A DNA stretch of 64,000 nucleotides. Origin: Escherichia coli. Its GTDB lineage: Bacteria > Pseudomonadota > Gammaproteobacteria > Enterobacterales > Enterobacteriaceae. Of the stretch, positions 2,403 through 24,855 are shown one piece after another (the first letter of the stretch is position 1; the number at the start of each line of letters is the position of its first letter). The notes under the pieces were generated by a model that was not told where the DNA came from, did no database searches, and saw only the letters and a list, made by a program, of their open reading frames with translations. The translations under genes were made by a program, and so were the position numbers. The DNA lies in NCBI RefSeq assembly GCF_016026235.1, contig NZ_CP065613.1; one strand, 5' to 3'.

Positions 2403-2464
2403 CGACATTTATACTGTCGTATAAAATTCGACTGGCAAATCTGGCACTCTCTCCGGCCAGGTGA

Positions 2465-3145
<681 letters not shown>

Positions 3146-3206
3146 CAACAATAAACCTTTACTTCATTTTATTAACTCCGCAACGCGGGGCGTTTGAGAT
3201 TTTATT

Positions 3207-5912: not shown

Positions 5913-5933
5913 AAGCTAACAGTTGAAGTAAAA

Positions 5934-5957
5934 GGCGCAGGATTCTGCGCCTTTTTT
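5934..5957 (+). terminator. Stem-loop plus T-run downstream of secA
   Basis: ggcgcaggattctgcgcc followed by tttttt. Confidence 0.5.
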
Positions 5958-5971
5958 ATAGGTTTAAGACA

Positions 5972-6361: not shown

Positions 6362-7177
<816 letters not shown>

Positions 7178-7281
7178 ATCAGCATACTTGTCCTTAGCCT
7201 TCTGCAGTGACAGCTGGTAGTACAGCGTGCTTCTGGCCAGCCCTGCAGCCTTTAACAGGTCAGACTGGCAGTGTCCGCACT

Positions 7282-7812: not shown

Positions 7813-7908
7813 CTTCAGATGTCAGATTATGTCCAACATTTGGGGTGCAGTTCATGGCGCGTCTTATCAGGCCTAAAGGGATTTCTAACTCATTGATAAA
7901 TTTTTTTT

Positions 7909-8010
<102 letters not shown>

Positions 8011-8012
8011 TG

Positions 8013-8210
8013 TCACTGCTTTGGTTCTTCGCTCCAGTCATCGCTTTCGGAAAGATCGCCACTGCTGGGGATTCGTTTTTCTTCAGCAGCCCATTCTCCG
8101 AGGTCGATCAGCTGACAACGTTTGGAGCAAAATGGCCGAAACGGGCTGATTTCACCCCACACCACCGTTTTCCCGCAGGTTGGGCAATTCACCGTAATAG
8201 TTTCTGACAT
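8013..8210 (-). CDS. yacG: DNA gyrase inhibitor YacG (zinc ribbon)
   Basis: 65 aa [43 protein letters not shown]. Confidence 0.9.
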
Positions 8211-8219
8211 TTTTACTCC

Positions 8220-8963
8220 TTAGCAACAGGCCAGTTCGAAATCCAGACGTTCCGGTACCTGTCCGTTTTCAGTGTCCAGCGGCATAAAACGAATGGCAAA
8301 ACGGCTCTTATGTCCGGAAATTTGCGGATAAAGCTGTGAATCGAGCGACAGATTCAGGCGCAGCAAGTCGGCATCGCCACCGTTATCCTGATAAAAACCA
8401 TTCAGGCTGGTTTGTTTACGGAAGGGGGCCGACTGGCGAATTAAATCCAGCACCATGGTAAGTGCCTGGGTGAGCGGGTTCAGGCTGGCAATCCAGGTTT
8501 CTACCTGGCTGTCGCGCTGCGCCTGGGGTAGATGCAGCCAAATGTGCAATGTTGGTAAATCAAAGCTGCAACAGCCGCCTGGGATGCTCAGTCGCTGACG
8601 CACCAGAGCAATCAAACGATCTTCACGTAGAAATTGCCCGATACGCGGCGCGGAGATTAATACGCTCCCCGCCGCTTTTAACTGCTGAATTAATGCTTCA
8701 ATACGGCTCTGGTCCACGCCAGGCACGCCAATCCAGGTCTGGAGTTTACGTTGCTGCCGGTCAAGTTCTTTCAACAGCTCAGTGCGGACTTCGCCGCGCT
8801 CGAAAACATCCAGTAATTCACTGACATTACGGAAGAAATGCAGCGCGCCAGCGTGGTCAACGATGGGTAAATTAACGGTGAGTTGCTGAATCAAAAACTC
8901 AATGCGCAGCCATGTACGCATTTTTTCATTTAGTGGATGTTCAAAAAGGACCTGGGTCTGCAT
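8220..8963 (-). CDS. zapD: Cell division protein ZapD
   Basis: 247 aa ORF in the conserved position between yacG and coaE. Confidence 0.88.
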
Positions 8964-9583
8964 TACGGTTTTTCCTGTGAGACAAACTGCGACGCAAGCT
9001 GCAAATAGTGTGCGTGCAGGCGGGCAACATCCGATGCGATAGCATCCGGTGCGCCGTTATTATCAATGACGTCATCTGCCACGGCAAGGCGGGCTTCGCG
9101 CGTTGCCTGAGCAGCAAGGATTTGTTCGACATGCTCGCGAGTTACATCATCGCGCTGCATGGTGCGCTTAAGTTGCGTTTCTGGGCTGACATCCACCACC
9201 AGCACTCGATTCGCTTTTTTATACAGTGAGTTTTCTACCAGCAATGGCACAACCCACAGTACATAGGGGGAGGTTGCTTGCTGGATCTGGTGTTGCGTCT
9301 CTTGCTGAATCAGCGGATGCAGCAGGTCGTTAAGCCAGTTTTTCTCTTCCGGGTTGGCGAAGATCCGCTCGCGCAAGGCCCGGCGCTGCAATGTTCCATC
9401 AGCAGCAATCATGTTAGCGCCAAAGTGATCAGCAATGGCATGTAGCGCAGGTGCACCTGGTTCAACCACCTGACGCGCAATAATATCGGCATCAATGACG
9501 TTAATTCCGAGATCAGCAAACGCATTGGCAACGGTACTCTTGCCACTGCCAATGCCTCCCGTTAAGGCAACTATATACCTCAT
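8963..9583 (-). CDS. coaE: Dephospho-CoA kinase CoaE
   Basis: 206 aa ORF with P-loop [19 protein letters not shown]. Confidence 0.92.
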
Positions 9584-9807
9584 AATTTATATTCCCGGGA
9601 ATTCATCATGATTATCAAAACGTTAAAAATGAGCGCACGAAAGCGAAATTGATGAAACGTTCGCTCACTATTTACCAGGTAAATTTATGGGATTGTAGCG
9701 TAAAAAAAGACAATTTCGCAGTCTTGCGCCGCATTGATTAGTGCGTATGATAGCGTCACTGGAGTTGCGCTCTTACCCTTATAGCCATTAACCCCAGGAA
9801 TCCGCAC

Positions 9808-10851
9808 ATGCGTATTGAAGAAGATCTGAAGTTAGGTTTTAAAGACGTTCTCATCCGCCCTAAACGCTCCACTCTTAAAAGCCGTTCCGATGTTGAACTG
9901 GAACGTCAATTCACCTTCAAACATTCAGGTCAGAGCTGGTCCGGCGTGCCGATTATCGCCGCAAATATGGACACCGTAGGCACATTTTCTATGGCCTCTG
10001 CGCTGGCTTCTTTTGATATTTTGACTGCTGTGCATAAACACTATTCTGTCGAAGAGTGGCAAGCGTTTATCAACAATTCTTCCGCTGATGTGCTGAAACA
10101 TGTGATGGTTTCTACCGGTACGTCAAATGCGGATTTCGAAAAAACTAAACAGATTCTCGACCTGAACCCGGCATTAAATTTCGTTTGTATTGACGTGGCG
10201 AATGGTTATTCCGAACACTTCGTGCAGTTCGTTGCGAAAGCGCGTGAAGCGTGGCCGACCAAAACCATTTGTGCTGGTAACGTAGTGACTGGTGAAATGT
10301 GTGAGGAGCTTATCCTCTCAGGTGCCGATATCGTTAAAGTTGGCATTGGCCCAGGTTCTGTTTGTACAACTCGCGTCAAAACAGGCGTCGGTTATCCGCA
10401 ACTTTCTGCGGTAATCGAATGTGCCGATGCTGCGCACGGTCTGGGCGGAATGATCGTCAGCGATGGTGGCTGCACCACGCCGGGCGATGTCGCGAAAGCT
10501 TTTGGCGGCGGTGCCGATTTCGTCATGCTTGGCGGCATGCTGGCGGGCCACGAAGAGAGCGGCGGTCGCATCGTTGAGGAGAACGGCGAGAAATTTATGC
10601 TGTTCTACGGCATGAGCTCCGAGTCTGCGATGAAACGTCACGTTGGCGGCGTTGCGGAATATCGCGCAGCAGAAGGTAAAACCGTTAAGCTGCCGCTGCG
10701 AGGCCCGGTTGAAAATACCGCGCGTGATATTTTGGGCGGCCTGCGTTCAGCTTGTACATACGTTGGGGCTTCACGCCTGAAAGAACTGACCAAGCGCACC
10801 ACATTTATCCGTGTGCAGGAACAAGAAAACCGCATCTTCAACAACCTGTAA
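9808..10851 (+). CDS. guaC: GMP reductase GuaC
   Basis: 347 aa IMPDH/GMPR-family [24 protein letters not shown]... Confidence 0.95.
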
Positions 10852-10885
10852 TCTTCCAACGCTGGTGTGGAGCAACACGCCAGCG

Positions 10886-12088
10886 TTATCCCATCCCACT
10901 CATCGCATCGCCTAAATGGAAAATTGGCAGATACATCGCCACCACCAGCGTACCGATAATTCCTCCCGTTATGATCAGCAACGCCGGTTCCAGTAAGGCT
11001 GCTAGGTTATCCGCCAGCGCCATTGTGTTATCCCGATGATGATGGGCGAGGTTGTCTAACATGAGATCCAGCGAGCCGGAGGCCTCTCCTGTTCTCACTA
11101 ATTGCAAACAGAGCGGGCTAAACTCACCGGTATTTTTTAGCGCCAGCCAGATGGGAAGACCGTTACTGATATCGTGCTGGATTTGTGTCAGAAGTTGCAC
11201 CCAGTACGGGCAGCGCATTGTTTCTCTGACGCTCTCTACGCCCTGTAAAAAAGTAATGCCTGCACTTTGTGTCAGCGCCAGAATCGTAAAGATCTGCGTG
11301 AGTTTTTGTCCCCGCATCAGTGAGCCCATAATCGGGATGTGTAACAGCAATTTCTGCCGCACGATAAGCCAGGTCGGTCGGCGCATCAGCAACTTATTGG
11401 CTATCGCCAGCAGAAAGCCGAACAACACCAGCAGCCAGCCCCATTCGCCACTAAAGTCTGCCAGCGTCATGATCCCCTGCGTTAGTGCCGGTAGTGGGGT
11501 GTTGAAGGTCTTATATATAGCGGCAAACTCCGGCAGAACAAAATGCAGCATTGCCACAACCACCATGATTGCCATCGCTAAAATGATGATGGGATAACGC
11601 AACGCTGATTTCACTTTGTCGGTCAACTGACGCTGGGCTTTTTGCTGACGCGCCAGTTCAAAGCAGCATTCATCCAGCTTACCGGTCAGTTCACCCGTGC
11701 GGATCATCGCCTGATAGAGCGGCGGAAATACCTCTGACCAGGGTAATAAGGCATTGGAAAAGGCAATGCCCTGTTCGAGATCGTGTGCCAGAGATTGCAG
11801 CAACGCTTGCCATTGCTTACTGGGATGCTGTTCCGCCAGCAGTGCCAGCCCTTCAGAAAGCGTTAACCCGGCTTTAAGTAGCGTCGCCAGTTGATGAATG
11901 ACTTCCGCGCTTTTATCTCCTCGCCACTGCGCAGAATTGATAGCAATTCGCTTCAGGCTTAGTGGAGTAACCATCTGTTGCTGTAGTGCCATGAGCAGCA
12001 AAGCACGGCTCTCTGCCCATAGCATCCCATCTTGCGCATTGCCGTCGCCGGTTATGCCATGCCAGCGCCAGAGTTGCTTACTCGCCAT
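10886..12088 (-). CDS. hofC: Type IV pilus / T2SS GspF-family inner membrane platform protein HofC
   Basis: 400 aa membrane ORF, GspF/PilC-like, in hofB-hofC-ppdD context. Confidence 0.88.
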   Translation of the reverse strand: MASKQLWRWHGITGDGNAQDGMLWAESRALLLMALQQQMVTPLSLKRIAINSAQWRGDKSAEVIHQLATLLKAGLTLSEGLALLAEQHPSKQWQALLQSLAHDLEQGIAFSNALLPWSEVFPPLYQAMIRTGELTGKLDECCFELARQQKAQRQLTDKVKSALRYPIIILAMAIMVVVAMLHFVLPEFAAIYKTFNTPLPALTQGIMTLADFSGEWGWLLVLFGFLLAIANKLLMRRPTWLIVRQKLLLHIPIMGSLMRGQKLTQIFTILALTQSAGITFLQGVESVRETMRCPYWVQLLTQIQHDISNGLPIWLALKNTGEFSPLCLQLVRTGEASGSLDLMLDNLAHHHRDNTMALADNLAALLEPALLIITGGIIGTLVVAMYLPIFHLGDAMSGMG

Positions 12089-13463
12089 GCGGCATCCCCA
12101 GTACGCGGATTAACTCTTCAAAGGTGGTTAAGCCTTGCTCCACGGCCAGGCAGCCGTTTTCAAAAAGCGTACGCATACCCGCCTGTCGTGCGTGCGTTTC
12201 CAGCGATTCAACGTCGGTATTAGCGGAAATAAGCTGACGAATGACCGGCGTTATGGGCAGAACTTCAAATAAGGCCGTACGACCATAAAAACCGTGGTAG
12301 CAATGTACACAACCGGGTGCCTGCCAGTGGGGCAGCGGCGACGGCCATACATTGACTGGAATATGGATGGGCTCCCCTTGCTGCTGGCGACAATGTGGGC
12401 AAAGTTTACGTACCAGACGCTGGGCTATTACCAGCGTAAGCGCTGATGAGAGCATCCAGCGGGCGACTCCCATTTGCTGTAAACGTACCAGCGTTTCGCA
12501 GGTGGAATTAGTGTGTAGGGTAGACAACACCAGGTGACCAGTTTGCGCCGCTTTAATAGCGATCTCTGCTGTTTCGCCATCGCGGATCTCTCCGATCATG
12601 ATGACGTCAGGATCCTGGCGCAATAACGCACGCAAAACGCCCTGAAAGGTGAGTCCTGCACGCGGATGGATTTGCGTCTGGTTTAGTCCGGCTATGGGGA
12701 TTTCAACCGGATCTTCGACGCTACAAATATTAATGTCAGCGGTATTCAGCTTTTGCAGGGCACTATAAAGCGTGACCGTTTTGCCGCTGCCGGTAGGGCC
12801 AGTTACCAGCACCAGTCCCTGTGGTTGTTGCAAGGCATGAGCAAAGTCCGCCAGTTGTAACGGCTGCATTCCAAGCGTGTTGACATCCAGTGCCTGACTC
12901 ACCTGCTGTAACAACCTTAATACCACCTTTTCACCACCCCGACATGGTAAGGTCGCAATACGAAATGAGACGGCGTTTCCTGCCAGTTCGACAGTGAATT
13001 GCCCGTCCTGCGGCAGGCGATGTTCCGCAATATCCAGGTTTCCCAGCACTTTTAATCTGGCGGTTAATGCGACTCCGGCATCCGGTGAAACATCCGGTAA
13101 AGGATGCAATACGCCGTCGATACGCAAGCGGATGCGGTAGGCATTGTCCGCTGGTTCGATATGAATATCAGATGCGCGTTGTTCCAGCGCAGATTGTAAC
13201 GTTCGAGTCAGCAACTCTGCTTTGGGCTGATGCTTCTCCTGAACAGCTACGGGCAATGTCTGTTGTGTGCGACTGGCGTGACCTTCCATTTGTTGGCGCG
13301 TCCAGCAGGTGATCTCAATACGTTTGGTGGTAGCGAAATGCAATGCGTCCAGTAGCTCATGCGAAGGTGCATCGACTACCGCAACATGAACCACCTCTTC
13401 GCTGGCATCCAGCAAGACTCCATGATAACGCAGACACAGGGCAGTGAGCTGTGGAATATTCAT
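12078..13463 (-). CDS. hofB: Type IV pilus assembly ATPase HofB (GspE/PilB family)
   Basis: 461 aa ORF with Walker A LVTGPTGSGKT and GspE signatures. Confidence 0.9.
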   Translation of the reverse strand: MNIPQLTALCLRYHGVLLDASEEVVHVAVVDAPSHELLDALHFATTKRIEITCWTRQQMEGHASRTQQTLPVAVQEKHQPKAELLTRTLQSALEQRASDIHIEPADNAYRIRLRIDGVLHPLPDVSPDAGVALTARLKVLGNLDIAEHRLPQDGQFTVELAGNAVSFRIATLPCRGGEKVVLRLLQQVSQALDVNTLGMQPLQLADFAHALQQPQGLVLVTGPTGSGKTVTLYSALQKLNTADINICSVEDPVEIPIAGLNQTQIHPRAGLTFQGVLRALLRQDPDVIMIGEIRDGETAEIAIKAAQTGHLVLSTLHTNSTCETLVRLQQMGVARWMLSSALTLVIAQRLVRKLCPHCRQQQGEPIHIPVNVWPSPLPHWQAPGCVHCYHGFYGRTALFEVLPITPVIRQLISANTDVESLETHARQAGMRTLFENGCLAVEQGLTTFEELIRVLGMPHGE

Positions 13464-13472
13464 TGCCGCTCC

Positions 13473-13913
13473 TTAGTTGGCGTCATCAAAGCGGAAGACA
13501 TCTTCGCAGGCTTGATGCAATGCGCTGTCACTTTGAATATTGCAGTTGCGCGTCCAGCCGGTGACGCCGTTTGCGTTATCCCAACCCGGTGTCATGACGA
13601 CGCTTAGCCCATTGAGACTTTCTTGCCCGGTCAGCGACACCACGCCCTTTGCCACACTCATGGCTGAAACATAGCGGGTGGTGGTAGGCGAGGGAATGCC
13701 ATTGCTGCCACCGTCGCAGGTATCTAATCCACCATGTTCCAGCGCGCACAACTCTACGGCGGTACGGTAAGGCACAAAGGTTTGTAGCATGTCGGTGAGT
13801 GCGGCTTTGCGCAGGTAGTTTTGATAAGCGGGAATACCAATGGCGCTTAAAATGGCAATGATGCCAATAACCACCATCAGTTCGATAAGTGTAAAACCGC
13901 GTTGCTTGTCCAT
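13473..13913 (-). CDS. ppdD: Type IV prepilin PpdD
   Basis: 146 aa ORF with prepilin N-terminus MDKQRGFTLIELMVVIGIIAILSAIGIPAYQNY. Confidence 0.9.
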   Translation of the reverse strand: MDKQRGFTLIELMVVIGIIAILSAIGIPAYQNYLRKAALTDMLQTFVPYRTAVELCALEHGGLDTCDGGSNGIPSPTTTRYVSAMSVAKGVVSLTGQESLNGLSVVMTPGWDNANGVTGWTRNCNIQSDSALHQACEDVFRFDDAN

Positions 13914-14115
13914 CTGTTTCGCTCCTTGATTTAGTTGGCGCTACTTTGGCAAACGCCATCAGCACAGGCGAGGGGCAAAAAACGAAACGGGAAAGCAGAT
14001 TCCGAGGTTTTTTATTTCGTTGCAGCGAAAGACAAGAAATTTGCGAGGCGTTACGAAGAAAGTTGGGGAAGGGGAGATTATCCGCCCGCGATGGAGCGGA
14101 TAAATCTGTCAACTA

Positions 14116-15069
<954 letters not shown>

Positions 15070-15096
15070 TTAGCACCACATATAAGGAGATCCTGC

Positions 15097-15648
15097 ATGT
15101 TGTTAGAACAGGGGTGGCTGGTTGGCGCGCGCCGCGTTCCCTCACCACATTACGATTGCCGCCCGGATGACGAAACACCCACCCTGCTGGTGGTGCACAA
15201 TATTAGCCTGCCGCCAGGCGAGTTTGGCGGTCCGTGGATCGACGCATTATTCACTGGAACTATTGATCCGCAGGCACATCCTTTCTTTGCTGAGATCGCC
15301 CATTTGCGCGTCTCCGCTCACTGTTTGATTCGCCGTGATGGTGAAATAGTCCAGTATGTTCCTTTCGATAAACGTGCCTGGCATGCGGGAGTCTCTCAGT
15401 ATCAGGGGCGCGAACGCTGCAATGATTTTTCTATTGGGATTGAGCTTGAAGGCACCGATACGCTGGCGTATACCGATGCGCAGTATCAACAGATTGCGGC
15501 GGTTACGCGGGCACTGATTGATTGCTATCCGGATATCGCTAAAAACATGACGGGCCATTGTGATATTGCGCCGGATCGGAAAACCGATCCCGGTCCTGCA
15601 TTTGATTGGGCACGGTTTCGTGCGCTGGTCAGCAAGGAGACAACATGA
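15097..15648 (+). CDS. ampD: 1,6-anhydro-N-acetylmuramyl-L-alanine amidase AmpD
   Basis: 183 aa [29 protein letters not shown]... Confidence 0.93.
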
Positions 15649-16499
15649 CGCTATTTACAACCTTACTGGTGTTAATTTTCGAGCGCCTGTTTAAGTTGGG
15701 CGAGCACTGGCAGCTTGATCATCGTCTTGAAGCGTTCTTTCGGCGGGTGAAACATTTTTCTCTCGGGCGCACGTTAGGCATGACCATTATTGCGATGGGC
15801 GTGACTTTTTTACTGTTACGCGCATTGCAGGGAGTATTGTTCAACGTTCCCACGCTGCTGGTGTGGCTGCTGATTGGTTTGCTGTGTATTGGCGCAGGTA
15901 AAGTTCGTCTTCATTATCATGCTTATCTGACAGCTGCTTCACGTAATGATAGCCATGCCCGTGCCACGATGGCTGGCGAACTCACCATGATTCACGGCGT
16001 CCCGGCAGGCTGCGACGAACGTGAGTATTTGCGTGAGCTGCAAAATGCATTGCTGTGGATTAACTTTCGTTTTTATCTTGCACCGCTGTTCTGGCTGATT
16101 GTGGGGGGAACCTGGGGACCCGTTACGCTGATGGGGTATGCGTTCTTGCGTGCATGGCAATACTGGCTGGCGCGATACCAGACGCCGCATCATCGTTTAC
16201 AGTCCGGCATTGATGCCGTGCTTCATGTACTGGATTGGGTGCCGGTTCGTCTTGCGGGTGTGGTATATGCCTTGATCGGTCATGGTGAGAAAGCGTTACC
16301 GGCCTGGTTTGCTTCGCTGGGTGATTTCCATACTTCGCAGTATCAGGTGTTAACGCGTCTGGCGCAGTTCTCTCTGGCGCGTGAACCGCATGTCGATAAG
16401 GTGGAGACGCCGAAGGCAGCGGTTTCAATGGCGAAGAAAACCTCGTTCGTGGTCGTGGTGGTGATTGCGCTACTGACGATTTACGGGGCGTTGGTGTAG
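15645..16499 (+). CDS. ampE: Regulatory membrane protein AmpE
   Basis: 284 aa membrane ORF starting [16 protein letters not shown], overlapping the ampD stop. Confidence 0.9.
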
Positions 16500-16528
16500 T
16501 GCCCGGCGATATACACCGGGCATTGTAA

Positions 16529-17479
16529 TCAGTAAGTCTCCGCAGGAGGGATGCCAAAGTCAGGCATCCCACTTTCATCCCAGCGAATCAATTTTAAGCG
16601 CGTATGGCGATTAGGATCGTACAGTGGATCGCCTTCTATTTCGGTGTAATTACGTGCGTGGTAGACCAGCACATCCTCACCCTCGGGCGTTTGGGTAAAA
16701 CTGTTATGTCTGGGGCCATACTGGCGATTTTCATAGCTGGTCGAAAAGACCGGACGCGGCGATTTATGCCAGTTCTCAGGCACTCTCGGGTCAGCGTCGA
16801 TGTCTATCCACAATAACCCCATGCAGTAGTTCTCGTCGGTAGCGCTGGCTGAGTAGCTGATGAATAACCGCTCGCCATGCATCACGACAGCCGGACCTTC
16901 ATTGACCCAGAATCCGCGACATTCCCAGTCATACTCCGGTTTGCTCAACATCACCGGCTCGCCTTTGATCGTCCACGGATTTTCCATTTCGGCCAGGTAA
17001 ATATTGGAGTTCCCGGCGATATCCGGTGCTTTTTGCGCCCACAAATACCACTGTTTACCCTGATGGTGAAAAGTGGTGGCATCCAGGGCAAAAGTATCAA
17101 ATGGTGTTTTAACTTGTCCTTTTTCAATCCACGTTCCGCTGAGCGGATCGGCATCACAACATTCAAGGGCAAACATCCGGTGCTGAAACATCCCCAGTTT
17201 GTCGAGCGCCTGAGTATGGGTGGCGGCAAAATAGATATACCACCGACCTGCAATATGATGCAGCTCCGGCGCCCAGATAAGTTCGCTCATGGGGCCGCTT
17301 TGCGGTTTACGCCACACCACGACAGGCGTGGCGCTGCGCAGCCCGACGAGCGAGTCTGCCCGGCGAATTTCCAGCCGGTCGTACTCCGGCACCGAGGCGA
17401 TAAAATAATAGTGGTTGCCATCGCGCAGTATAAAGGGATCGGCGCGTTGCTCGATAAATGGATTCGGCCAGTCTTGCAT
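16529..17479 (-). CDS. GH43-like glycoside hydrolase (predicted beta-xylosidase/arabinofuranosidase-type); accessory relative to K-12
   Basis: 316 aa ORF with ADPF and WAPE motifs typical of the five-bladed propeller GH43 clan; start overlaps the upstream transporter stop. Confidence 0.65.
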   Translation of the reverse strand: MQDWPNPFIEQRADPFILRDGNHYYFIASVPEYDRLEIRRADSLVGLRSATPVVVWRKPQSGPMSELIWAPELHHIAGRWYIYFAATHTQALDKLGMFQHRMFALECCDADPLSGTWIEKGQVKTPFDTFALDATTFHHQGKQWYLWAQKAPDIAGNSNIYLAEMENPWTIKGEPVMLSKPEYDWECRGFWVNEGPAVVMHGERLFISYSASATDENYCMGLLWIDIDADPRVPENWHKSPRPVFSTSYENRQYGPRHNSFTQTPEGEDVLVYHARNYTEIEGDPLYDPNRHTRLKLIRWDESGMPDFGIPPAETY

Positions 17480-18873
17480 TAGGCTTTCCTTACTGTTTCT
17501 ACAGCGTTTATTTCCTGATAGTCATTCAGTTCGCGGTAATTGGTGCGACGTTTTTCCAGATCGGTCTGGATGCGTTTCATCAGTTCGCGGTCTACTTTCA
17601 GTAGGCGGACGACGCCTGCGGTAATCAGATAGCCCACCCCAGGAATGACGGTAAAGAGCAGTACAATACCGTTAATCGCCGTGGCGCTTTGGGCTTTCGC
17701 ACCGGCATCGTAGCCGTACCATGAGAGCAGAAAGCCCACCATCGCCCCGGCAATGGCCAGGCCCAGTTTGAGGAAGAAAAGGTTACCGGAGAAGCTGATG
17801 CCGGTGATGCGTTTACCGGTTTTCCATTCGCCGTAGTCGTCGACGTCTGCCATCAGCGACCAGTGCAGCGGGGAGGGGATCTGGTGCAGAATGTTGAGCA
17901 CCACAATCATCACCGTGGCGTGCGGATTAAAGAAATAAAAGGCGCAGGAGAAAATTGCCAGCGCGATGTTGGTCCAGAAAAAGACTTTCAGTTTGCACCA
18001 GCGGTCGGTTAACACTTTCGCCAACATACTGCCGATCATCATTCCGACAACGCCGAGGCTAATAAAGAGGGTTGCAAACTGAGTACTCTCACCCATTACC
18101 CAGGTGACATAGTACATGGTTGCCGCCATGCGGATAAATCCAGGGCAGACGTTGCACAAGGTGAGCAGCAGAATGCGCACCCACTGATCGTTTTTCCAGA
18201 CATCTTTAAAATCGTTCTTCATGTCGTCATGGGTTTGTACCGCCGGGCGAATGCGCTCACGAACCGTGGCGAAACAGAACAAAAACATACACATACCGAT
18301 GATTGCCAGCACGGTCATAGCCAGCTGATACCCTTTCGCTTTGTCGCCGCCGCCAAATAGATCCACCATCGGCAATAGCGTCAGCGAGAGCAGAAGGGTA
18401 GCGATGCCCACCATCACAAAACGGTACGACTGGCAGGCCACGCGCTCTTGTGGGTCATTAGTAATCACGCCACCTAACGAGCAGTAAGGAATGTTAATGG
18501 CGGTATAGGTCAGGGAGAGCAGGAAATAGGTAACAAAGGCATAGATAACCTTGCTGCTATAGCTCCATTCTGGCGTGGTAAACATCAGGATGCTGAATAG
18601 CGCGTAGGGGAAGGCAATCCACAATAGCCAGGGACGAAAACGACCATATTTGCTTTGGGTGCGGTCGGCAATGGCCCCCATAATAGGGTCAGTGACGGCA
18701 TCGATAACCCGTACAGAGAGCAGTAATACGCCAACGAGTGCCGGGGCCAGACCAAAAATATCCGTATAAAAATAGTTAACAAACAGCATGATAGCGCCAA
18801 AGATGATGTTGCATCCTGCGTCGCCCATCCCGTAGCCGATCTTTTCTCTTACTGATAATTTACTGCTATTCAT
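17479..18873 (-). CDS. Glycoside-pentoside-hexuronide (GPH) family sugar:cation symporter
   Basis: 464 aa polytopic membrane ORF with MelB/GPH-like N-terminus GYGMGDAGCNIIFGAIMLFVNYFYTD. Confidence 0.75.
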   Translation of the reverse strand: MNSSKLSVREKIGYGMGDAGCNIIFGAIMLFVNYFYTDIFGLAPALVGVLLLSVRVIDAVTDPIMGAIADRTQSKYGRFRPWLLWIAFPYALFSILMFTTPEWSYSSKVIYAFVTYFLLSLTYTAINIPYCSLGGVITNDPQERVACQSYRFVMVGIATLLLSLTLLPMVDLFGGGDKAKGYQLAMTVLAIIGMCMFLFCFATVRERIRPAVQTHDDMKNDFKDVWKNDQWVRILLLTLCNVCPGFIRMAATMYYVTWVMGESTQFATLFISLGVVGMMIGSMLAKVLTDRWCKLKVFFWTNIALAIFSCAFYFFNPHATVMIVVLNILHQIPSPLHWSLMADVDDYGEWKTGKRITGISFSGNLFFLKLGLAIAGAMVGFLLSWYGYDAGAKAQSATAINGIVLLFTVIPGVGYLITAGVVRLLKVDRELMKRIQTDLEKRRTNYRELNDYQEINAVETVRKA

Positions 18874-19031
18874 AGAGAAGACTCCCCATCAAGTGATGAG
18901 GATAATTATTCGCTCGCTATGGATAAATTGCGTTGCAGGATAACGCCGCTGATATGGATAAAATCGCTTTGCACGGAAAAGTGTGAGGCAGGTAACAACC
19001 CTCACCCTGTACGGGTGAGGGCGTAGAGAGA

Positions 19032-20405
19032 TTAATGCGCTTTTACGGCTTTGGCGGTTTTCTCTTTAAACAGATAGCCGATACCTAACACGATCAGCCA
19101 TACCGGGATCAGGTATACCGAAATCGCCATTCCTGGGGTCATCAGCATAATCACCAGTACCGCCGCCATAAACAGCAGGCAGATCCAGTTACCCAGCGGA
19201 TAAAGCAGAGCAGGGAAGCGAGTTACCACGCCTTGTTCCTGCTTGGCGCGACGGAATTTCATATGCGCCAGGCTAATCATCGCCCAGTTGATCACCAGTG
19301 CAGATACCACCAGTGCCATTAACAGGCCAAATGCGGATTCCGGAGCAAGATAGTTAATCAATACGCACAATGCTGTAACCAGCGCAGACACCAGAATGGT
19401 GTTAACCGGTACGCCGCGTTTATCGACAGACGCCAGCGCTTTTGGCGCATTACCCTGTTGTGCCAGACCAAACAGCATACGGCTGTTGCAATATACGCAG
19501 CTGTTGTACACGGAGAGCGCCGCAGTCAGTACCACGATGTTCAGCGCATTCGCCACAAAGGTATCGCCTAACTCGTGGAAGATCAGCACAAACGGACTGG
19601 TATCGGCGGTAACGCGGGTCCACGGCATCAGTGAGAGCAGAACGGCTAACGAACCAATATAGAAAATCAGGATGCGGTAGATAACCTGGTTAGTTGCTTT
19701 CGGGATACTTTGCTCCGGGTTATCAGCTTCTGCTGCGGTGATCCCCACCAGTTCCAGACCACCGAACGAGAACATGATAATCGCCATCATCATCACCAGC
19801 CCGGTGAAGCCGTGCGGCAGGAAACCACCCTGATCCCACAGGTTGCTAACGCTTGCCTGCGGACCGCCGTTACCACTGAACAGCAGCCAGCCGCCGAAGA
19901 TGATCATCGCTACTACCGCAATAACTTTGATAATGGCAAACCAGAACTCCATCTCACCAAACACTTTTACGTTGGTCAGGTTGATGGCGTTAATCACCAC
20001 AAAGAACACGGCGGCAGAAACCCAGGTTGGGATTTCCGGATACCAGAACTGAATGTATTTACCCACGGCAGTCAGCTCTGCCATGGCAACTAAAACGTAC
20101 AGTACCCAGTAGTTCCAGCCAGAGGCGAAACCGGCAAAACTGCCCCAGTATTTATAAGCAAAGTGGCTAAAGGAGCCTGCGACAGGTTCTTCGACCACCA
20201 TTTCACCCAGCTGACGCATGATCAGAAAGGCGATAAAACCAGCAATGGCGTATCCCAGGATAATCCCTGGCCCTGCGGACTGTATTACGGAGGCGCTACC
20301 CAGGAATAGCCCTGTCCCTATCGCGCCACCCAGCGCGATAAGCTGAATATGGCGGTTTTTAAGGCCGCGCTTTAGCTGCTCGCCGTGCTGTTGACCTTCC
20401 ATCAT
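19032..20405 (-). CDS. aroP: Aromatic amino acid permease AroP
   Basis: 457 aa APC-family permease MMEGQQHGEQLKRGLKNRHIQLIALGGAIGTGLF. Confidence 0.95.
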   Translation of the reverse strand: MMEGQQHGEQLKRGLKNRHIQLIALGGAIGTGLFLGSASVIQSAGPGIILGYAIAGFIAFLIMRQLGEMVVEEPVAGSFSHFAYKYWGSFAGFASGWNYWVLYVLVAMAELTAVGKYIQFWYPEIPTWVSAAVFFVVINAINLTNVKVFGEMEFWFAIIKVIAVVAMIIFGGWLLFSGNGGPQASVSNLWDQGGFLPHGFTGLVMMMAIIMFSFGGLELVGITAAEADNPEQSIPKATNQVIYRILIFYIGSLAVLLSLMPWTRVTADTSPFVLIFHELGDTFVANALNIVVLTAALSVYNSCVYCNSRMLFGLAQQGNAPKALASVDKRGVPVNTILVSALVTALCVLINYLAPESAFGLLMALVVSALVINWAMISLAHMKFRRAKQEQGVVTRFPALLYPLGNWICLLFMAAVLVIMLMTPGMAISVYLIPVWLIVLGIGYLFKEKTAKAVKAH

Positions 20406-20982
20406 GAAACCTCGTGCGGTGATTGTTTTTTTGATCTACGCAGTGATGCGTGTGTAAGTTTGCAATTCCGTTTGTTGTATTGATTTCTTTACGTTTCATG
20501 TAACTGAATTATGATAATGCTACTTTTAACTATCACAAGATAATGGTATGTGCCCGGGAATGCACCTGCTTTATGTAGATGCGTTGATTTTTTGGATAAA
20601 AAAAAACCAATTGTAAGTTTTTTTCACATTTTATAGATACTTTAAGTAGGATAACATGCTGTTTTAACTAGCTATACTTGTCATTCTTCAAGTTACATGT
20701 GCTGCAACTCGAATTATTTAGAGTATATAAACCGGATTTATTTGCCTGCTGAACAACATGCCTTAGGTACCAGCACGATAATCTTACGAAATGCCATATA
20801 AAAATAAATAGATGTTAATAATGCAGTGGGCTTGTAACGTAAGTATTTAAATATAATATTGCGAGATGAGTGAAAACGTTAAGTAATAGAAATAATTTTT
20901 CATTAAAAGCGTTTATAATTGATCGAGAAATAAGTTTTCTATTTAATGGAAATAAGTTAAGGATAAACGGGAATAAAATAAA

Positions 20983-22764
20983 GTGAGCGATATTGTTTAC
21001 CTGAGAATAATCGGTGAGAAGCAGGGCGATATTTCTTCAGGCTGTGGGACGTATGCGTCGGTTGGTAATCGCTGGCAGGTTGGCCATGAAGATGAAATTT
21101 TTGCCTTTGCACTCACCAACGCCATTACCAGTACTGGTAATGGCGTTAATCTACAGGGGCTACAATTTTGCAAACTCATTGATAAAAGCTCACCGCTACT
21201 GTCTAATGCCATCAATCAGAATGAGCGGTTATTTATTGAAATCGATTTGTATCGTATAAATAAAAGCGGGCGCTGGGAACGGTATTATTATATTCAGCTA
21301 AGAAATGCTTCATTAACTGCTATTCATGTAAACATTTCTGACAATAATCTTCCTACCGAATGTGTAACTGTCGATTATCACTACATATTATGTAAACATC
21401 TAATAGCCAATACGGAATTTGACTGGTTGGCCTTTCCTGCTGGCTATAATAGCTTATTTATTCCGCCTAAAAGCCCACCTGCCAGTAATCTTAAGCCTGA
21501 ACCTCTACCAGTTGTTAACCTTCCACTCTCTTCACCAGCGGTTAACCCGGTCTATGCCAAATCCTGTCTGAAGGAGAAGGGATGTACAGATGCTGGAACG
21601 GCAGAAGAACCCGCTGAAAACTTCGGTCAAGTAGCGATTTTTGCTCAGCCAGTGGTTGATGACTGCTGTGGATACCACCATCCCGAGGCTAACGATGTCG
21701 GGCAACCCGCAGAAGCTCAAACCATGCTACTGTTTCCGGGTAGTGTGTTGGCGGCTCAAATATGGGGAAAATGGTCGCTCAGTGGCATACTCAGTGCAAC
21801 CCGCGGCTCTTACATCGGTGCGTTGGCATCTGCTTTGTATATTCCCTCTGCGGGCGAGGGCAGTGCTCGCGTGCTCGGACGTGATGAGTTCTGGTATGAG
21901 GAAGAACTGCGGCAGAAAGCACTAGCAGGCAGTACCGCCACCACCCGGGTACGTTTTTTCTGGGGAACTGATATTCACGGCAAGCCTCAGGTGTATGGTG
22001 TTCATACGGGTGAAGGTACGCCGTATGAAAACGTCCGCGTGGCGAACATGCAGTGGAACGAGCAGACGCAGCGTTATGAATTTACCCCCGCTCACGATGT
22101 CGATGGCCCCCTGATTACCTGGACGCCGGAAAATCCGGAACATGGGAATGTTCCGGGCCATACCGGTAACGACAGGCCGCCGCTGGATCAGCCCACCATT
22201 CTGGTGACGCCGATTCCGGACGGTACAGATACCTATACCACGCCGCCATTCCCGGTTCCTGATCCGAAAGAATTCAACGATTATATTCTGGTTTTTCCGG
22301 CGGGATCCGGTATTAAGCCCATCTATGTTTACCTGAAGGAGGATCCGCGAAAGCTGCCTGGTGTTGTAACAGGGCGCGGCGTCCCGCTTTCATCAGGAAC
22401 TCGCTGGCTGGATATGTCGGTATCCAATAACGGCAACGGCGCGCCAATCCCGGCGCATATTGCTGATAAATTGCGCGGACGGGAGTTTAAAACCTTTGAT
22501 GAGTTTCGCGAGGCGCTGTGGCTGGAGGTGAGTCAGGATCCGGAGTTGATAGCGCAGTTTTCAAGTGGTAACCAAACACGTATAAAACAAGGATTAACCG
22601 CAAAAGCACCTATTGACGGTTGGCATTATGGCCCTAAAGAAATAGTTAAAAAATTCCAGATACATCATCGTGTTGCAATTGAATATGGCGGCAGCGTATA
22701 CGATATTGATAATTTACGAATTGTTACCCCCAGACTACACGATGAGATTCACTACAGGAGATAA
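20983..22764 (+). CDS. Hcp (T6SS tube protein) fused to a C-terminal colicin E9-type HNH DNase domain (Hcp-ET class effector)
   Basis: N-terminal ~165 aa Hcp-like (LRIIGEKQGDISSG, GHEDE, SPLLSNAI, QLRNASLTAIHV); Pro-rich linker; C-terminal ~130 aa alignable with colicin E9 DNase (GAPIPAHIADKLRGREFKTFDEFREALWLEVSQDPEL ... HHRVAIEYGGSVYDIDNLRIVTPRLHDEIH); GTG start in an AT-rich leader. Confidence 0.85.
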   Translation: MSDIVYLRIIGEKQGDISSGCGTYASVGNRWQVGHEDEIFAFALTNAITSTGNGVNLQGLQFCKLIDKSSPLLSNAINQNERLFIEIDLYRINKSGRWERYYYIQLRNASLTAIHVNISDNNLPTECVTVDYHYILCKHLIANTEFDWLAFPAGYNSLFIPPKSPPASNLKPEPLPVVNLPLSSPAVNPVYAKSCLKEKGCTDAGTAEEPAENFGQVAIFAQPVVDDCCGYHHPEANDVGQPAEAQTMLLFPGSVLAAQIWGKWSLSGILSATRGSYIGALASALYIPSAGEGSARVLGRDEFWYEEELRQKALAGSTATTRVRFFWGTDIHGKPQVYGVHTGEGTPYENVRVANMQWNEQTQRYEFTPAHDVDGPLITWTPENPEHGNVPGHTGNDRPPLDQPTILVTPIPDGTDTYTTPPFPVPDPKEFNDYILVFPAGSGIKPIYVYLKEDPRKLPGVVTGRGVPLSSGTRWLDMSVSNNGNGAPIPAHIADKLRGREFKTFDEFREALWLEVSQDPELIAQFSSGNQTRIKQGLTAKAPIDGWHYGPKEIVKKFQIHHRVAIEYGGSVYDIDNLRIVTPRLHDEIHYRR

Positions 22765-22766
22765 AT

Positions 22767-23051
22767 ATGTTTAAAGAAAAGCTCCAGGATTATACCGAGG
22801 ATGAATTTCTTAATTTTTTAGGCGGATTGAGATCATCTATGAAAGATGGAAAATCCTTAAAAGGTAAGGAGCTAGAAATGTACTGGGATTCATTAGTAGA
22901 TCATTTTATTGAAATTACACAGCATCCGTCAGGGAGCGATCTAATTTTCTACCCTAAAAGTCAAGGAGATGATAAGCCTGAAAACATCCTGAAAATTGTC
23001 AAAGAATGGCGGCGTTCACAGGGGTTACCCTTGTTTAAAGACTCTAAATAA
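22767..23051 (+). CDS. Colicin-DNase immunity protein (Im9-like), cognate to the Hcp-DNase
   Basis: 94 aa; DYTEDEFLNFL ... ITQHPSGSDLIFYP ... resembles Im9 (DYTEAEFL ... TEHPSGSDLIYYP); starts 3 nt after the toxin stop. Confidence 0.85.
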   Translation: MFKEKLQDYTEDEFLNFLGGLRSSMKDGKSLKGKELEMYWDSLVDHFIEITQHPSGSDLIFYPKSQGDDKPENILKIVKEWRRSQGLPLFKDSK

Positions 23052-23204
23052 AGTAGATAATAAAACTATATATGGAACATCATCGCATCTGGCTAATGCG
23101 ATGATATTAATGACATAAAATAATAATGTGATTGCTCTTAAAAAACAGGTAAAAATACTGAAGCCTCATTAGGTTATTTTATCATTTTCCCGCTTTTACC
23201 GATA

Positions 23205-23458
23205 CCCTTTGGCTGGAGGTGAGTCAGTATCCGGAGTTGATAGCGCAGTTTTCAAGCGGTAATCAAACACGTATAAAACAAGGATTAATCGCAAAAGCAC
23301 CACTTGAAGGTTGGCATTATGGCACTAAAGAAATCGTTAAAAAATTCCACATGGATCATCGTGTTGCGATTGAATATAGTGGCGGAATTTACGATATTGA
23401 TAATTTAAGGAGGGCACACCTCATTTGCATGATGAAATTTATTACAGGAGATAGTTAA
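23205..23458 (+). pseudogene. Orphan HNH-DNase C-terminal fragment, no Hcp or linker, frameshifted at the 3' end
   Basis: Homology to the primary toxin begins abruptly at WLEVSQYPELIAQFSSGNQTRIKQGL...; the final HDEIYYRR motif is out of frame. Confidence 0.7.
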
Positions 23459-23749
23459 ATGTATAATTTTAAAGATAAAATAGAAGATTACACAGAGCGG
23501 GAATTCATTGAGTTGCTTGGCGAGTTTACAAATCCAACCGGGGATAACGCTCAATTAAAAGGGGAAGAGCTTGACAAATATTGGGATGATCTAGAAGAAC
23601 ATCTTACCAGAATTACACAACATCCGTTGATGAGCGATCTTATCTACTATCCTGCAAAGAAGGGAGATGATGAACCTGAAAACATCCTGAAAATTGTCAA
23701 AGAATGGCGGCGTTCACAGGGGCTACCCTTGTTTAAAGACTCTAAATAA
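23459..23749 (+). CDS. Orphan Im9-like immunity protein (variant 2)
   Basis: 96 aa; divergent N-terminal half, C-terminal PENILKIVKEWRRSQGLPLFKDSK identical to immunity 1. Confidence 0.8.
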   Translation: MYNFKDKIEDYTEREFIELLGEFTNPTGDNAQLKGEELDKYWDDLEEHLTRITQHPLMSDLIYYPAKKGDDEPENILKIVKEWRRSQGLPLFKDSK

Positions 23750-23901
23750 AGTAGATAATAAAACTATATATGGAACATCATCGCGTCTGGCTAATGCGAT
23801 GATGTTAATAACATAAAATAATAATGTGGGTGCTCTTAATAAACAGGTAAAATACTGAAATCTCATTAGGTTATTTTATCAATTTCCCGCTTTCACCGAT
23901 A

Positions 23902-24152
23902 CCCTTTGGCTGGAGGTGAGTCAGTATCCGGAGTTGATAGCGCAGTTTTCAACTGGTAACCAAACACGTATAAAACAAGGATTAATCGCAAAAGCGCCTC
24001 TTGAAGGTTGGCATTATGGATCTAAGGAAATTGTTGAAGAATTCCATATATATCATAGTGTTGCGATTGAATGTGGTGGCGAAATTTATTATATTGATAA
24101 TTAAAGGATTGTTACGTCTCGACTACATGATGAAATTCACTACAGGAGATAA
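23902..24152 (+). pseudogene. Orphan HNH-DNase C-terminal fragment with premature stop (TTA to TAA) before the terminal catalytic His motif
   Basis: WLEVSQYPELIAQFSTGNQTRIKQGLIAKAPLEGWHYGSKEIVEEFHIYHSVAIECGGEIYYIDN-stop, then in-frame RIVTSRLHDEIHYRR. Confidence 0.7.
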
Positions 24153-24448
24153 TGTATATGCATGATTTAAAATATAAAATATATTTTTACACAGAAGGTG
24201 AATTTCTTGAAATGCTTGAGGAGATAGTAAATGCAACTAGCAAAGATAAATCCCTAAAAGGGAAAAAATTAGAAAAATATCTCGATACCTTAGTGGATCA
24301 TTTCATTAAAATTACTGAACATCCTAAAAAGGGAGATCCCATTTTCTATCCTAATTCCCCAGAAGATGGTAAACCTGAAAACATCCTGAAAATCGTCAAA
24401 GAATGGCGGCGTTCGCAAGGATTGCCTTTGTTCAAAGATTCAGAATGA
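24152..24448 (+). CDS. Orphan Im9-like immunity protein (variant 3)
   Basis: 98 aa; conserved C-terminal PENILKIVKEWRRSQGLPLFKDSE, divergent N-terminal half. Confidence 0.8.
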   Translation: MYMHDLKYKIYFYTEGEFLEMLEEIVNATSKDKSLKGKKLEKYLDTLVDHFIKITEHPKKGDPIFYPNSPEDGKPENILKIVKEWRRSQGLPLFKDSE

Positions 24449-24855
24449 ACTCTAAACAGAATCTGTCACCTGAAAATCATCACGTTCTGGTTAAGTGATG
24501 ATTTTCGCTACGAGAAGGTTACGGTGGCGATTGTAGTGATAATAAGCAATGTAAAAAGAAAACATAGGTAAATACTACCTTTCTCTCCTTCCCTGAACAT
24601 TCATTTTACATATTAATTCACATAATTGAATTGTTATGCGTTTTGTTGCTTGGTGAATCGGTTCAGAGGAAATATTTTTTCGTTTCAATTCTGTTAATCT
24701 CACCCCTTGATGGGTAAATTTAACATTTGTGCATAGTTACAACTTTGAAACGTTATATATGTCAAGTTGTTAAAATGTGCACAGTTTCATGATTTCAATC
24801 AAAACCTGTATGGACATAAGGTGAATACTTTGTTACTTTAGCGTCACAGACATGA

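Follow-up and report, generated by a model that had tools for sequence, protein, structure and literature searches.

The closest described system to the locus studied here is araT-araU of Salmonella, where the two genes (STM14_0178 and STM14_0177) are strongly induced by L-arabinose (PMC11834461). An AraC regulon list includes araU/STM14_0177 (PMC8341724, citing Stringer 2014), and loss of STM0148, the hydrolase gene, cuts the gut expansion of Salmonella solely on arabinose-polysaccharide diets (PMC10016319). At the enzyme level, SaAraf43A and AtAbf43C are exo-1,5-alpha-L-arabinofuranosidases of subfamily 26 of glycoside hydrolase family 43 (GH43_26), a group with a deep, narrow exo pocket and oligosaccharides as substrates; in AtAbf43C, residues D168, D283, and E344 have been verified by mutagenesis (PMC12493170). 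WAraf43 and LbAraf43 cleave alpha-1,5 arabino-oligosaccharides of DP 2-3 but not alpha-1,3 arabinoxylan oligosaccharides, both are regarded as intracellular, and for WAraf43 it is uptake that sets the substrate size limit (PMC7125115).

Here, we describe a related gene pair between ampE and aroP in a 64,000-nucleotide stretch of Escherichia coli DNA (the window). Taken as a whole, it is likely that the pair is an araT-araU ortholog, bicistronic and controlled by AraC and CRP, that supplies the L-arabinose pathway with arabino-oligosaccharides. The features of the locus are collected in Table 1.

The gene pair and its ancestry

An earlier note on this DNA had claimed a GPH symporter and a GH43-like hydrolase as an overlapping pair on the minus strand, and both open reading frames were recovered exactly at the coordinates it gave. 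The stop codon of the transporter shares one base with the start codon of the hydrolase (TAATG), and a Shine-Dalgarno sequence, AAGGAAAG, precedes the overlapping hydrolase start; the arrangement is that of a translationally coupled pair. Where ampE and the GH43 gene converge, the hairpin has fold energies of -17.7 kcal/mol (minus strand, z = -4.5) and -19.7 kcal/mol (plus strand, z = -3.5); for the aroP terminator hairpin, the value is -21.2 kcal/mol (z = -4.75). An Rfam scan of positions 16300..21100 returned nothing relevant, the sole match being a sub-threshold isrH (E = 0.45).

Table 1. Features of the ampE-aroP locus, in window coordinates
Feature	Position	Strand	Evidence or remark
ampE	15645..16499	+	NF008219 equivalog passed
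2.5-kb segment, missing in K-12 and in 98.9% of complete E. coli genomes	16499..18998		Junction comparison
GC-rich hairpin, likely bidirectional terminator	16501..16521		Between the convergent ampE and GH43 genes
GH43 subfamily-26-like predicted cytoplasmic exo-alpha-L-arabinofuranosidase, araU/STM0148 ortholog, 316 aa	16529..17479	-	PF04616 and solved relatives
GPH-family cation symporter, araT/STM0149 ortholog, 464 aa	17479..18873	-	TIGR00792 and MFS_2
Shine-Dalgarno sequence GGGGAG	18882..18887	-	Read directly; 8 nt upstream of the transporter ATG
Candidate -10 hexamer AATAAT	18905..18910	-	Conserved block in an alignment of 74 upstream regions
AraC I2-like half-site CGGCGTTATCCTGCAAC	18932..18948	-	Overlaps a weak -35; aligns with araI2 of ParaBAD
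AraC I1-like half-site AAGCGATTTTATCCATA	18953..18969	-	14/17 match to araI1 TAGCATTTTTATCCATA
CRP-like site TGTTACCTGCCTCACA	18982..18997	-	Consensus at 9/10 positions
aroP terminator hairpin, also in K-12	18999..19021		Right edge of the segment that K-12 lacks
aroP	19032..20405	-	NF007594 equivalog passed

The transporter matched the NCBIfam model TIGR00792 (GPH:cation symporter) at 417 bits against a cutoff of 231.35, over positions 1-437 of 437, and the Pfam domain MFS_2 (PF13347) at 2.4e-95 (320 bits); it also aligned with MelB structures at 4e-48. These profile matches assign it to the glycoside-pentoside-hexuronide (GPH):cation symporter family, TC 2.A.2. It did not reach the cutoff of the YagG subfamily (NF007237, 475 < 610) or those of the YicJ-type (NF008526, 484 < 836), glucuronide (UidB; NF007353, 288 < 528), and MelB (NF007749, 251 < 456) equivalogs, so no characterised ortholog pins its specificity. 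We infer its substrate class solely from the partner enzyme and the promoter.

The hydrolase matched the profile of the five-bladed-propeller catalytic domain, Glyco_hydro_43 (PF04616), at 2.6e-78 (263.7 bits, cutoff 32.2) over profile positions 2-288 of 288, which places it in glycoside hydrolase family 43. Its best solved relatives are 5M8B, 5M8E, 3K1U, 9NXJ/9NXG, and 3AKF, with E values from about 1e-127 to 1e-103, while the next GH43 structure after these top six reached only E = 8.5e-15. Alignments with LbAraf43 (5M8B), WAraf43 (5M8E), AtAbf43C (9NXG), and SaAraf43A (3AKF) are full length, and the solved homologs are approximately 60% identical, as estimated by eye from the alignments, which is close enough to fix the fold. 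Because the top six solved structures, SaAraf43A and AtAbf43C among them, all lie at E <= 1e-103, the hydrolase clusters with characterised GH43_26 enzymes, and its membership of subfamily 26 is assigned by this clustering. Residues D14, D133, and E194 align with D168, D283, and E344 of AtAbf43C; D14 is unchanged across all 80 orthologs, while D133 and E194 are conserved by alignment. As judged from these alignments, the catalytic triad is intact. The N-terminus (MQDWPNPFIEQRAD...) lacks a hydrophobic signal sequence, and the catalytic Asp comes as early as residue 14. By analogy with the activities reported for its homologs (PMC7125115, PMC12493170), the enzyme is predicted to carry out exo alpha-1,5-L-arabinofuranosyl hydrolysis.

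In a clustered protein search with the hydrolase, the top match came from Salmonella (87%), and the E. coli cluster itself was not among the matches listed. Amino acid identity to Salmonella is 91% for the transporter and 87% for the hydrolase. The order aroP-GPH-GH43-ampE is found in Salmonella, Citrobacter, and Pseudescherichia, and of 80 loci, drawn from more than 25 genera, 79 have ampE adjoining the GH43 gene. On gene order and protein identity, the pair is the Escherichia ortholog of Salmonella STM0149/STM0148 (STM14_0178-STM14_0177; araT-araU). The STM0148 and STM0149 tags were assigned by gene order and by the LT2 numbering, in which ampE is STM0147 and aroP is STM0150; a literature search for araT/araU returned only unrelated papers. 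The dS values to Salmonella are 1.72 for the GH43 gene and 1.09 for the GPH gene, next to 1.49 for ampE, 1.05 for aroP, and 1.22 for nadC (range of the flanking genes, 1.05-1.64), a level of divergence that fits vertical descent. The GC content of the pair (52%) equals that of its flanks, and no mobility genes or repeats were found at the segment edges. A foreign genomic islet, considered as the origin of the segment, was rejected on its flank-like GC and dS and its synteny in more than 25 genera; comparative evidence identifies the locus as the ancestral Enterobacteriaceae state and not an insertion. In Pseudescherichia vulneris, a second pair, composed of a GPH gene and a 515-aa GH43/GH43_C2 (xylosidase-type) gene, adjoins the araT/araU-like pair.

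Distribution and private changes in E. coli

As stated in the earlier note, ampE and aroP are adjacent in K-12 (42 bp apart in BW25113), and both genes of the pair, which were looked for at this position, are absent there. Its description of the locus as strain variable also held in a synteny comparison across E. coli, where 53 of the 5,426 complete genomes carry the pair. One deletion junction of the K-12 type is common to 5,364 of these 5,426 genomes, a pattern that indicates a single near-fixed deletion that removed the pair from approximately 99% of E. coli. In the 9-nt sequence at the K-12 junction, AGATTATTG, the likeness to the -10 region covers too few bases to be judged as a remnant of the segment.

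Among carriers, nucleotide diversity is 0.14-0.18% in the pair versus 1.1-1.6% in the flanks, approximately ten times lower, and by this measure one young haplotype is shared by the roughly 1% of strains with the pair. Identity to the cryptic Escherichia sp. E1V33 is 99.65% in the pair and just 87-93% in the flanks. An E1V33-like ampE tract is present in 11 carriers and in no non-carrier; it differs by approximately 10% from all 5,370 other E. coli, agrees with E1V33 at 24 of 26 diagnostic sites, and has a sharp breakpoint around ampE position 600, upstream of which the E1V33 ampE is equally diverged from E. coli. In most carriers, the adjacent flanks are of the E. coli type (99.7% to K-12). 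The likeliest route of re-entry for the pair is homologous recombination, through ampE and aroP, with DNA of an E1V33-like cryptic Escherichia lineage, with the direction of transfer read from one cryptic-lineage genome and from the ampE side only. On the aroP side, a divergent tract (gene positions 917-1145) was discarded as an introgression marker; it is a common E. coli dimorphism found in 672 genomes, including non-carriers.

Both genes of the window have private changes. The transporter is 464 aa long, while every other E. coli carrier encodes one of 468 or 472 aa, and a 12-bp deletion at 17900/17901, between TGCTC direct repeats, removes the residues LYFL from helix X, which are present in 75 of 75 transporter homologs. 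In the hydrolase, a G-to-A change at 16711 produces G257R within the invariant GPGHNSF motif, at a position where all 80 orthologs and all five solved homologs have Gly. The two changes were seen in the window alone among 54 E. coli copies. Because they hit invariant positions in both genes, the operon of the window probably has weakened activity or none. The transporter may tolerate the loss of four residues from a transmembrane helix, and G257R may not be inactivating by analogy with AtAbf43C, which stays active with H408A, a substitution at the neighbour of the Gly matching G257 (PMC12493170).

A stronger possibility, that the operon in the window strain is a pseudogenising, non-functional relic in which uptake, hydrolysis, or both are abolished, is one to which we give slightly less credence than to its opposite; it concerns current function and not identity. 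The private nature and the invariant positions (75/75 and 80/80) of the changes speak for it, as do the loss of the locus from E. coli as a species and the overt decay of the carrier MB56, whose GH43 gene is interrupted by a stop codon and whose transporter gene carries an ISSen4 insertion. Against it, both reading frames in the window are open, the catalytic triad is intact, and the neighbouring His mutation is tolerated in AtAbf43C (PMC12493170). Assembly or sequencing errors could account for the changes, yet the deletion is flanked by 5-bp direct repeats, as in real slippage.

A fuller history, which we rate somewhat short of an even chance, is an ancient single deletion, a recent regain in approximately 1% of strains from cryptic Escherichia, and a decay that has already begun in some of them (the window and MB56). 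It is unlikely that the pair is instead an ancient presence/absence polymorphism kept inside E. coli, never lost and regained, and that E1V33 got it from E. coli. The E. coli-type flanks of most carriers would agree with such a polymorphism, and the comparison included a single genome of the E1V33 clade, but a pair diversity ten-fold below that of the immediately adjacent genes argues against it, as do the E1V33-like ampE tract of the 11 carriers, with its distance from other E. coli, and the equal divergence of E1V33 ampE upstream of the breakpoint.

Promoter layout and predicted function

The region upstream of the transporter has the layout of an AraC-regulon promoter, with two direct-repeat 17-bp half-sites placed 4 bp apart, as in araI, at the -35 and a CRP site upstream. 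The I1-like match was checked against a real araBAD promoter, and 0.47 chance occurrences of the I1 motif are expected in 64 kb; the I2-like half-site resembles araI2 weakly. The distance from the I2-like site to the candidate -10 is 21 nt, versus 20 nt in ParaBAD, and the CRP-like site is the sole consensus match in the window. Across 74 loci, the TCCAT core of the I1-like site and the I2-like core CCTGCAACGC are each at least 95% conserved, and TGT[TG]A-N6-TCACA occurs in 70 of 74 orthologous promoters. The CRP, I1, I2, and -10 blocks are all kept in Salmonella in a further alignment of upstream regions, and the araBAD-like layout is conserved over approximately 70 Enterobacteriaceae species. 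A consensus sigma-70 scan upstream of the transporter found no promoter, a null result that is expected and uninformative because the promoter would be activator dependent. A third TCCATA site (18918..18934) was dropped as an AraC half-site for lack of conservation in Salmonella and other genera. Neither a divergent araC gene nor an O2 looping operator was found near the pair. By analogy with Salmonella, we infer that AraC would bind the E. coli copy and that its transcription would depend on arabinose.

The earlier proposal of a pentoside or small oligosaccharide as the substrate can be made more specific: a GH43_26-like enzyme and an AraC/CRP-type promoter point to alpha-1,5-L-arabino-oligosaccharides. 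We hypothesize that cAMP-CRP and arabinose-bound AraC would act at the araBAD-like promoter to transcribe the coupled genes, and that the GPH symporter would import short alpha-1,5-linked L-arabinofuranosyl oligosaccharides, probably of DP 2-3, which may originate from pectic arabinan and be freed by other gut microbes. The cytoplasmic GH43_26 exo-enzyme would take arabinose off the non-reducing end by an inverting mechanism, with D14 as the putative base, E194 as the acid, and D133 as the pKa modulator, and the released L-arabinose would enter AraBAD catabolism and reinforce AraC induction.

We consider it improbable that the hydrolase acts outside the cell on dietary polysaccharides to free L-arabinose, the model put forward for Salmonella STM0148, with the symporter unrelated or devoted to other cargo. 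The in vivo Salmonella data were read as arabinose liberation from complex plant polysaccharides (PMC10016319), but an N-terminus without a signal sequence and with the catalytic Asp so close to its start, a GH43_26 pocket suited to oligosaccharides (PMC12493170), and the intracellular status accorded to the close homolog WAraf43 (PMC7125115) all count against secretion. So does the coupling of the hydrolase to the symporter in every genus examined. Least probable of all is a xyloside/beta-xylosidase system, for which we counted database labels ("GH43 family beta-xylosidase"), the deposition of PDB 5M8B and 3K1U as beta-xylosidase, and the GPH relatives YagG and YicJ, which adjoin xylosidase-type genes in K-12. 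Against it, the characterised cluster members are alpha-1,5 arabinofuranosidases (PMC12493170, PMC7125115), the promoter sites are of the AraC and not the XylR type, the Salmonella orthologs are L-arabinose induced (PMC11834461), and the separate xylosidase-type pair alongside in P. vulneris implies distinct roles. For annotation, an araT/araU-like name is preferable to the beta-xylosidase label.

If the history of deletion, regain, and renewed decay is true, the locus would be a natural gain/loss experiment on arabino-oligosaccharide access, the E. coli niche, and competition with Salmonella. The status of the E. coli copy could matter because Salmonella requires the hydrolase ortholog to expand in the gut on arabinose from fibre (PMC10016319); a working copy in a commensal or pathogenic E. 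coli strain could alter how it competes with Salmonella for nutrients and how it grows on breakdown products of pectic arabinan. With nearly all other enterobacterial genera conserving the locus, its near-fixed deletion in E. coli is a concrete metabolic difference, and the 53 carriers, some intact (FDAARGOS_943, KV7, and PapRG-04-4 among them) and some decayed, are ready strains for testing.

Comparison with known systems

The Salmonella araT-araU genes occupy the same slot between aroP and ampE in the same order and orientation. The operon belongs to the core genome in Salmonella and most Enterobacteriaceae, whereas in E. coli it is a young haplotype confined to approximately 1% of the complete genomes, and the Salmonella genes have neither the 4-aa deletion nor the G257R of the window. 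With YagG and YicJ of K-12 and with MelB, the window transporter has the GPH fold in common, but it forms a distinct orthologous group. The promoter is like that of E. coli araBAD in element order and in near-identical spacing, with the CRP half-site TCACACTTT, an I1 identical at 14 of 17 positions, a 4-bp spacer, an I2 over the -35, and a -10 approximately 20 nt further on; it departs from araBAD in the sequences of I2 and of the -10. Like LbAraf43 and WAraf43, the hydrolase is a single domain without a signal peptide, encoded beside a sugar permease gene (PMC7125115). It has the Asp/Asp/Glu triad and the GPGHNSF motif in common with the GH43_26 arabinofuranosidases, but it lacks the CBM42 module of SaAraf43A and AtAbf43C. 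Unlike the solved GH43_26 enzymes, it is Gram-negative and predicted to be AraC regulated, and the window allele has an Arg where those enzymes keep the invariant Gly257.

The gene pair and its likely substrate

The transporter and hydrolase genes between ampE and aroP are, as judged from their predicted products, an araT/araU-type operon of Enterobacteriaceae for the uptake and hydrolysis of arabino-oligosaccharides, a system that is already known. The earlier note had proposed a glycoside uptake and hydrolysis operon, a reading that is supported and can now be sharpened to this type, and its coordinates for both minus-strand open reading frames are exact. The K-12 adjacency of ampE and aroP, which it mentioned, is correct, with a gap of 42 bp in K-12 BW25113.

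Reading of the sequence places one base in common between the transporter stop and the hydrolase start (TAATG), with a ribosome-binding site, AAGGAAAG, directly 5' of the latter, and the two genes would therefore be translationally coupled. The transporter matches Pfam MFS_2 (2.4e-95) and NCBIfam TIGR00792 (GPH:cation symporter; score 417, cutoff 231) and falls under the NCBIfam cutoffs for the YagG, YicJ-type, glucuronide, and MelB groups, and so forms a separate orthologous group within the GPH family. The hydrolase matches Pfam Glyco_hydro_43 (2.6e-78), and the flanking genes score above the equivalog cutoffs for AmpE and AroP.

Structure-database comparison aligned the full-length hydrolase with a tight cluster of solved GH43 enzymes: 5M8B (Lactobacillus brevis), 5M8E (Weissella), and 3K1U (E ~1e-127), 9NXJ/9NXG (AtAbf43C; E ~1e-119), and 3AKF (SaAraf43A; E ~1e-104). 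The next-best GH43 structure, outside this cluster, had an E value of only 8.5e-15. SaAraf43A and AtAbf43C are GH43 subfamily 26 exo-1,5-alpha-L-arabinofuranosidases with a deep and narrow exo pocket, and the catalytic triad D168/D283/E344 of AtAbf43C is proven (PMC12493170); residues D14, D133, and E194 of the hydrolase align with it. The substrates of WAraf43 and LbAraf43 are alpha-1,5 arabino-oligosaccharides (DP 2-3), the alpha-1,3-linked arabinose of arabinoxylan oligosaccharides being left uncut; both enzymes are without signal peptides, and the range of oligosaccharides used is limited by uptake (PMC7125115). The E. coli hydrolase is likewise predicted to have no signal peptide, because its N-terminus is MQDWPNPFIEQRAD and the catalytic Asp is already residue 14.

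Promoter and regulation

The promoter region, read as the 158 bp upstream of the transporter, contains a series of elements resembling those of araBAD. The araBAD reference promoter was confirmed by a 100% match in the araC-araB intergenic region of real genomes; when the transporter promoter is aligned with it, the elements of the two correspond in order and spacing, and I1 is identical at 14 of 17 positions. Chance matches expected in 64 kb number 0.47 for the I1-like motif and 0.30 for the CRP-like motif, so that each alone is mildly unexpected. TGT[TG]A-N6-TCACA is found in 70 of 74 orthologous promoters, and conservation across the set extends to the I1 TCCAT core, the AATAAT hexamer, and the CCTGCAACGC block; these conserved blocks coincide exactly with the CRP-like, I1, I2, and AATAAT elements, as they also do in alignment A1. 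The literature on the Salmonella orthologs agrees with the predicted AraC/CRP-type promoter: L-arabinose is a strong inducer of STM14_0177/0178 (PMC11834461), and PMC8341724 includes araU/STM14_0177 in the AraC regulon, after Stringer et al. 2014.

Features of the arabinoside pair, its promoter, and carrier alleles (window positions unless a locus fetched from another genome is named)
Feature	Coordinates	Strand	Remark
Transporter ORF	17479..18873	minus	464 aa
Hydrolase ORF	16529..17479	minus	316 aa
CRP-like site TGTTACCTGCCTCACA	18997..18982	minus	first in order
AraC I1-like half-site AAGCGATTTTATCCATA	18969..18953	minus	after CRP-like site
Spacer between I1-like and I2-like half-sites		minus	4 bp
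I2-like half-site CGGCGTTATCCTGCAAC	18948..18932	minus	
AATAAT hexamer	18910..18905	minus	21 nt past I2-like half-site
GGGGAG, then transporter ATG		minus	last in order
E1V33-type ampE 3' tract	L091 (KV7) 5716..5971		equivalent window ~16244..16499
NAVE duplication	L003 (2018-02-2CC) transporter C-terminus		equivalent window ~17495

Descent, loss, and probable re-entry

The pair also lies between aroP and ampE in Salmonella, Citrobacter, and Pseudescherichia. When a single genome was scanned for each species, 348 relatives came up; in the 80 best loci, which span more than 25 genera of enterobacteria, ampE adjoins the hydrolase in 79, and aroP is ahead of the transporter in every locus with a long enough flank. 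The dS between E. coli and Salmonella is 1.72 for the hydrolase and 1.09 for the transporter, compared with 1.49, 1.05, 1.22, and 1.64 for the neighbouring ampE, aroP, nadC, and ampD, and the GC content of the pair (52%) is similar to that of its flanks. The shared position, neighbour-like dS, and flank-like GC together mark the pair as the vertical ortholog of Salmonella STM0149/STM0148.

Pseudescherichia vulneris (L005 9149..13688) has extra genes between the pair and ampE, namely another GPH transporter, a xylosidase-type GH43 of 515 aa that includes a GH43_C2 domain, and a 419-aa gene without a Pfam match; the site appears to gather glycoside-utilisation cassettes. The same pair, at 80-87% identity and with neither ampE nor aroP nearby, occurs in Gallibacterium salpingitidis (Pasteurellaceae; L086 3594..5945), which suggests horizontal transfer out of Enterobacteriaceae.

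Only 53 of 5426 complete E. coli genomes have the pair, every copy being chromosomal and at the ampE-aroP site. A 120-bp probe found the K-12 junction, in which ampE and aroP are joined without the pair, in 5364 of the complete genomes, and this identity indicates loss by one nearly fixed deletion, an old event that would account for the rarity of the operon. Among Escherichia species representatives, the pair was detected in only two, the cryptic Escherichia sp. E1V33, with 100% protein identity, and E. whittamii, with 93%. Nucleotide diversity among eight carriers is 0.14-0.18% in the pair, 1.6% in adjacent ampE, and 1.1% in aroP; the pair is 99.65% identical to that of E1V33, although identity between the E1V33 flanks and E. 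coli is only 87-93%.

In KV7 and O78 strain 3, ampE changes from E. coli-type to E1V33-type at a sharp breakpoint at about gene position 600. The resulting 3' tract matches E1V33 at 24 of 26 diagnostic sites, differs by ~10% from the sequence in every other E. coli, and is found in 11 genomes, all carriers, and in 0 of the other ~5,370; the window keeps at most its last 35 bp, including the ampE TAG stop. The simplest reading is that E. coli lost the operon, that a single haplotype may have come back from an E1V33-like lineage through homologous recombination, and that this haplotype would then have moved among backgrounds while its donor flanks were trimmed bit by bit. Introgression has thus probably restored the operon in ~1% of strains. 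We infer the direction of transfer, from the E1V33-like lineage into E. coli, from a single genome of the cryptic lineage.

The aroP side gives no information on transfer. An aroP segment (window 19261..19489, gene positions 917-1145) is dimorphic in E. coli, with 672 genomes matching the window type at 95% identity or more, non-carriers such as ATCC 8739 among them, and 4744, including K-12, matching it at only 90-95%, and this dimorphism shows no linkage to the pair. MSB1_4I (L089 4346..5200), labelled E. coli and without the pair, has an ampE 5' portion ~89% identical to K-12, more diverged from K-12 than that of E1V33, which suggests further introgressed alleles at this locus.

Decay in carriers, surrounding DNA, and the Salmonella counterpart

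Two changes in the window occur in none of the 53 carriers in the database. In the transporter, 12 bp are missing between TGCTC direct repeats at 17900/17901, which takes LYFL out of the helix aligned with MelB helix X, ~12 residues ahead of the Trp aligned to MelB W342; LYFL is kept in 75/75 transporter orthologs. In the hydrolase, G->A at 16711 produces G257R in GPGHNSF, at a position that is Gly in 80/80 orthologs and likewise in each of the five solved homologs that the alignments show. Mutation of AtAbf43C H408, the His beside this Gly, leaves activity intact (PMC12493170), so that inactivation is plausible rather than certain; the operon is probably impaired in this strain. Carrier MB56 (L095 6001..9582) is an independent case of decay, with an internal stop in the GH43 gene and a transporter split by the IS3-family ISSen4, which shows that the operon is being lost anew among carriers. 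In four carriers, a 12-bp tandem duplication repeats NAVE near the transporter C-terminus (472 aa versus 468).

Elsewhere in the window, a low-GC (30-40%) insertion between aroP and pdhR (20983..24450, plus strand), missing from K-12 and most other carriers, encodes a 593-aa protein in which domains of Hcp (T6SS tube), S-type pyocin, and colicin/pyocin DNase are fused; a colicin-immunity gene comes next (22767..23051), and the FDAARGOS_943 annotation places two more immunity-gene copies. Downstream of lpdA (~32800..64000), gene order departs from that usual in E. coli, and a lambdoid prophage (integrase fragment, replication protein O, large terminase gpA, and lambda-type portal) is broken by IS elements (rve-type and IS4-type transposases). 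Most E. coli genomes lack about 9% of 1..16500 and align to it in two pieces; full coverage is seen only in FDAARGOS_943, in whose annotation an IS3-family transposase lies in this stretch.

The interest of the operon is modest and lies in its population history in E. coli and the contrast with Salmonella, in which STM0149/STM0148 form the same pair at the same aroP-ampE location. There, the STM0148 arabinofuranosidase makes the bacterium more competitive in the mouse gut, but only with arabinose polysaccharides in the diet (PMC10016319).
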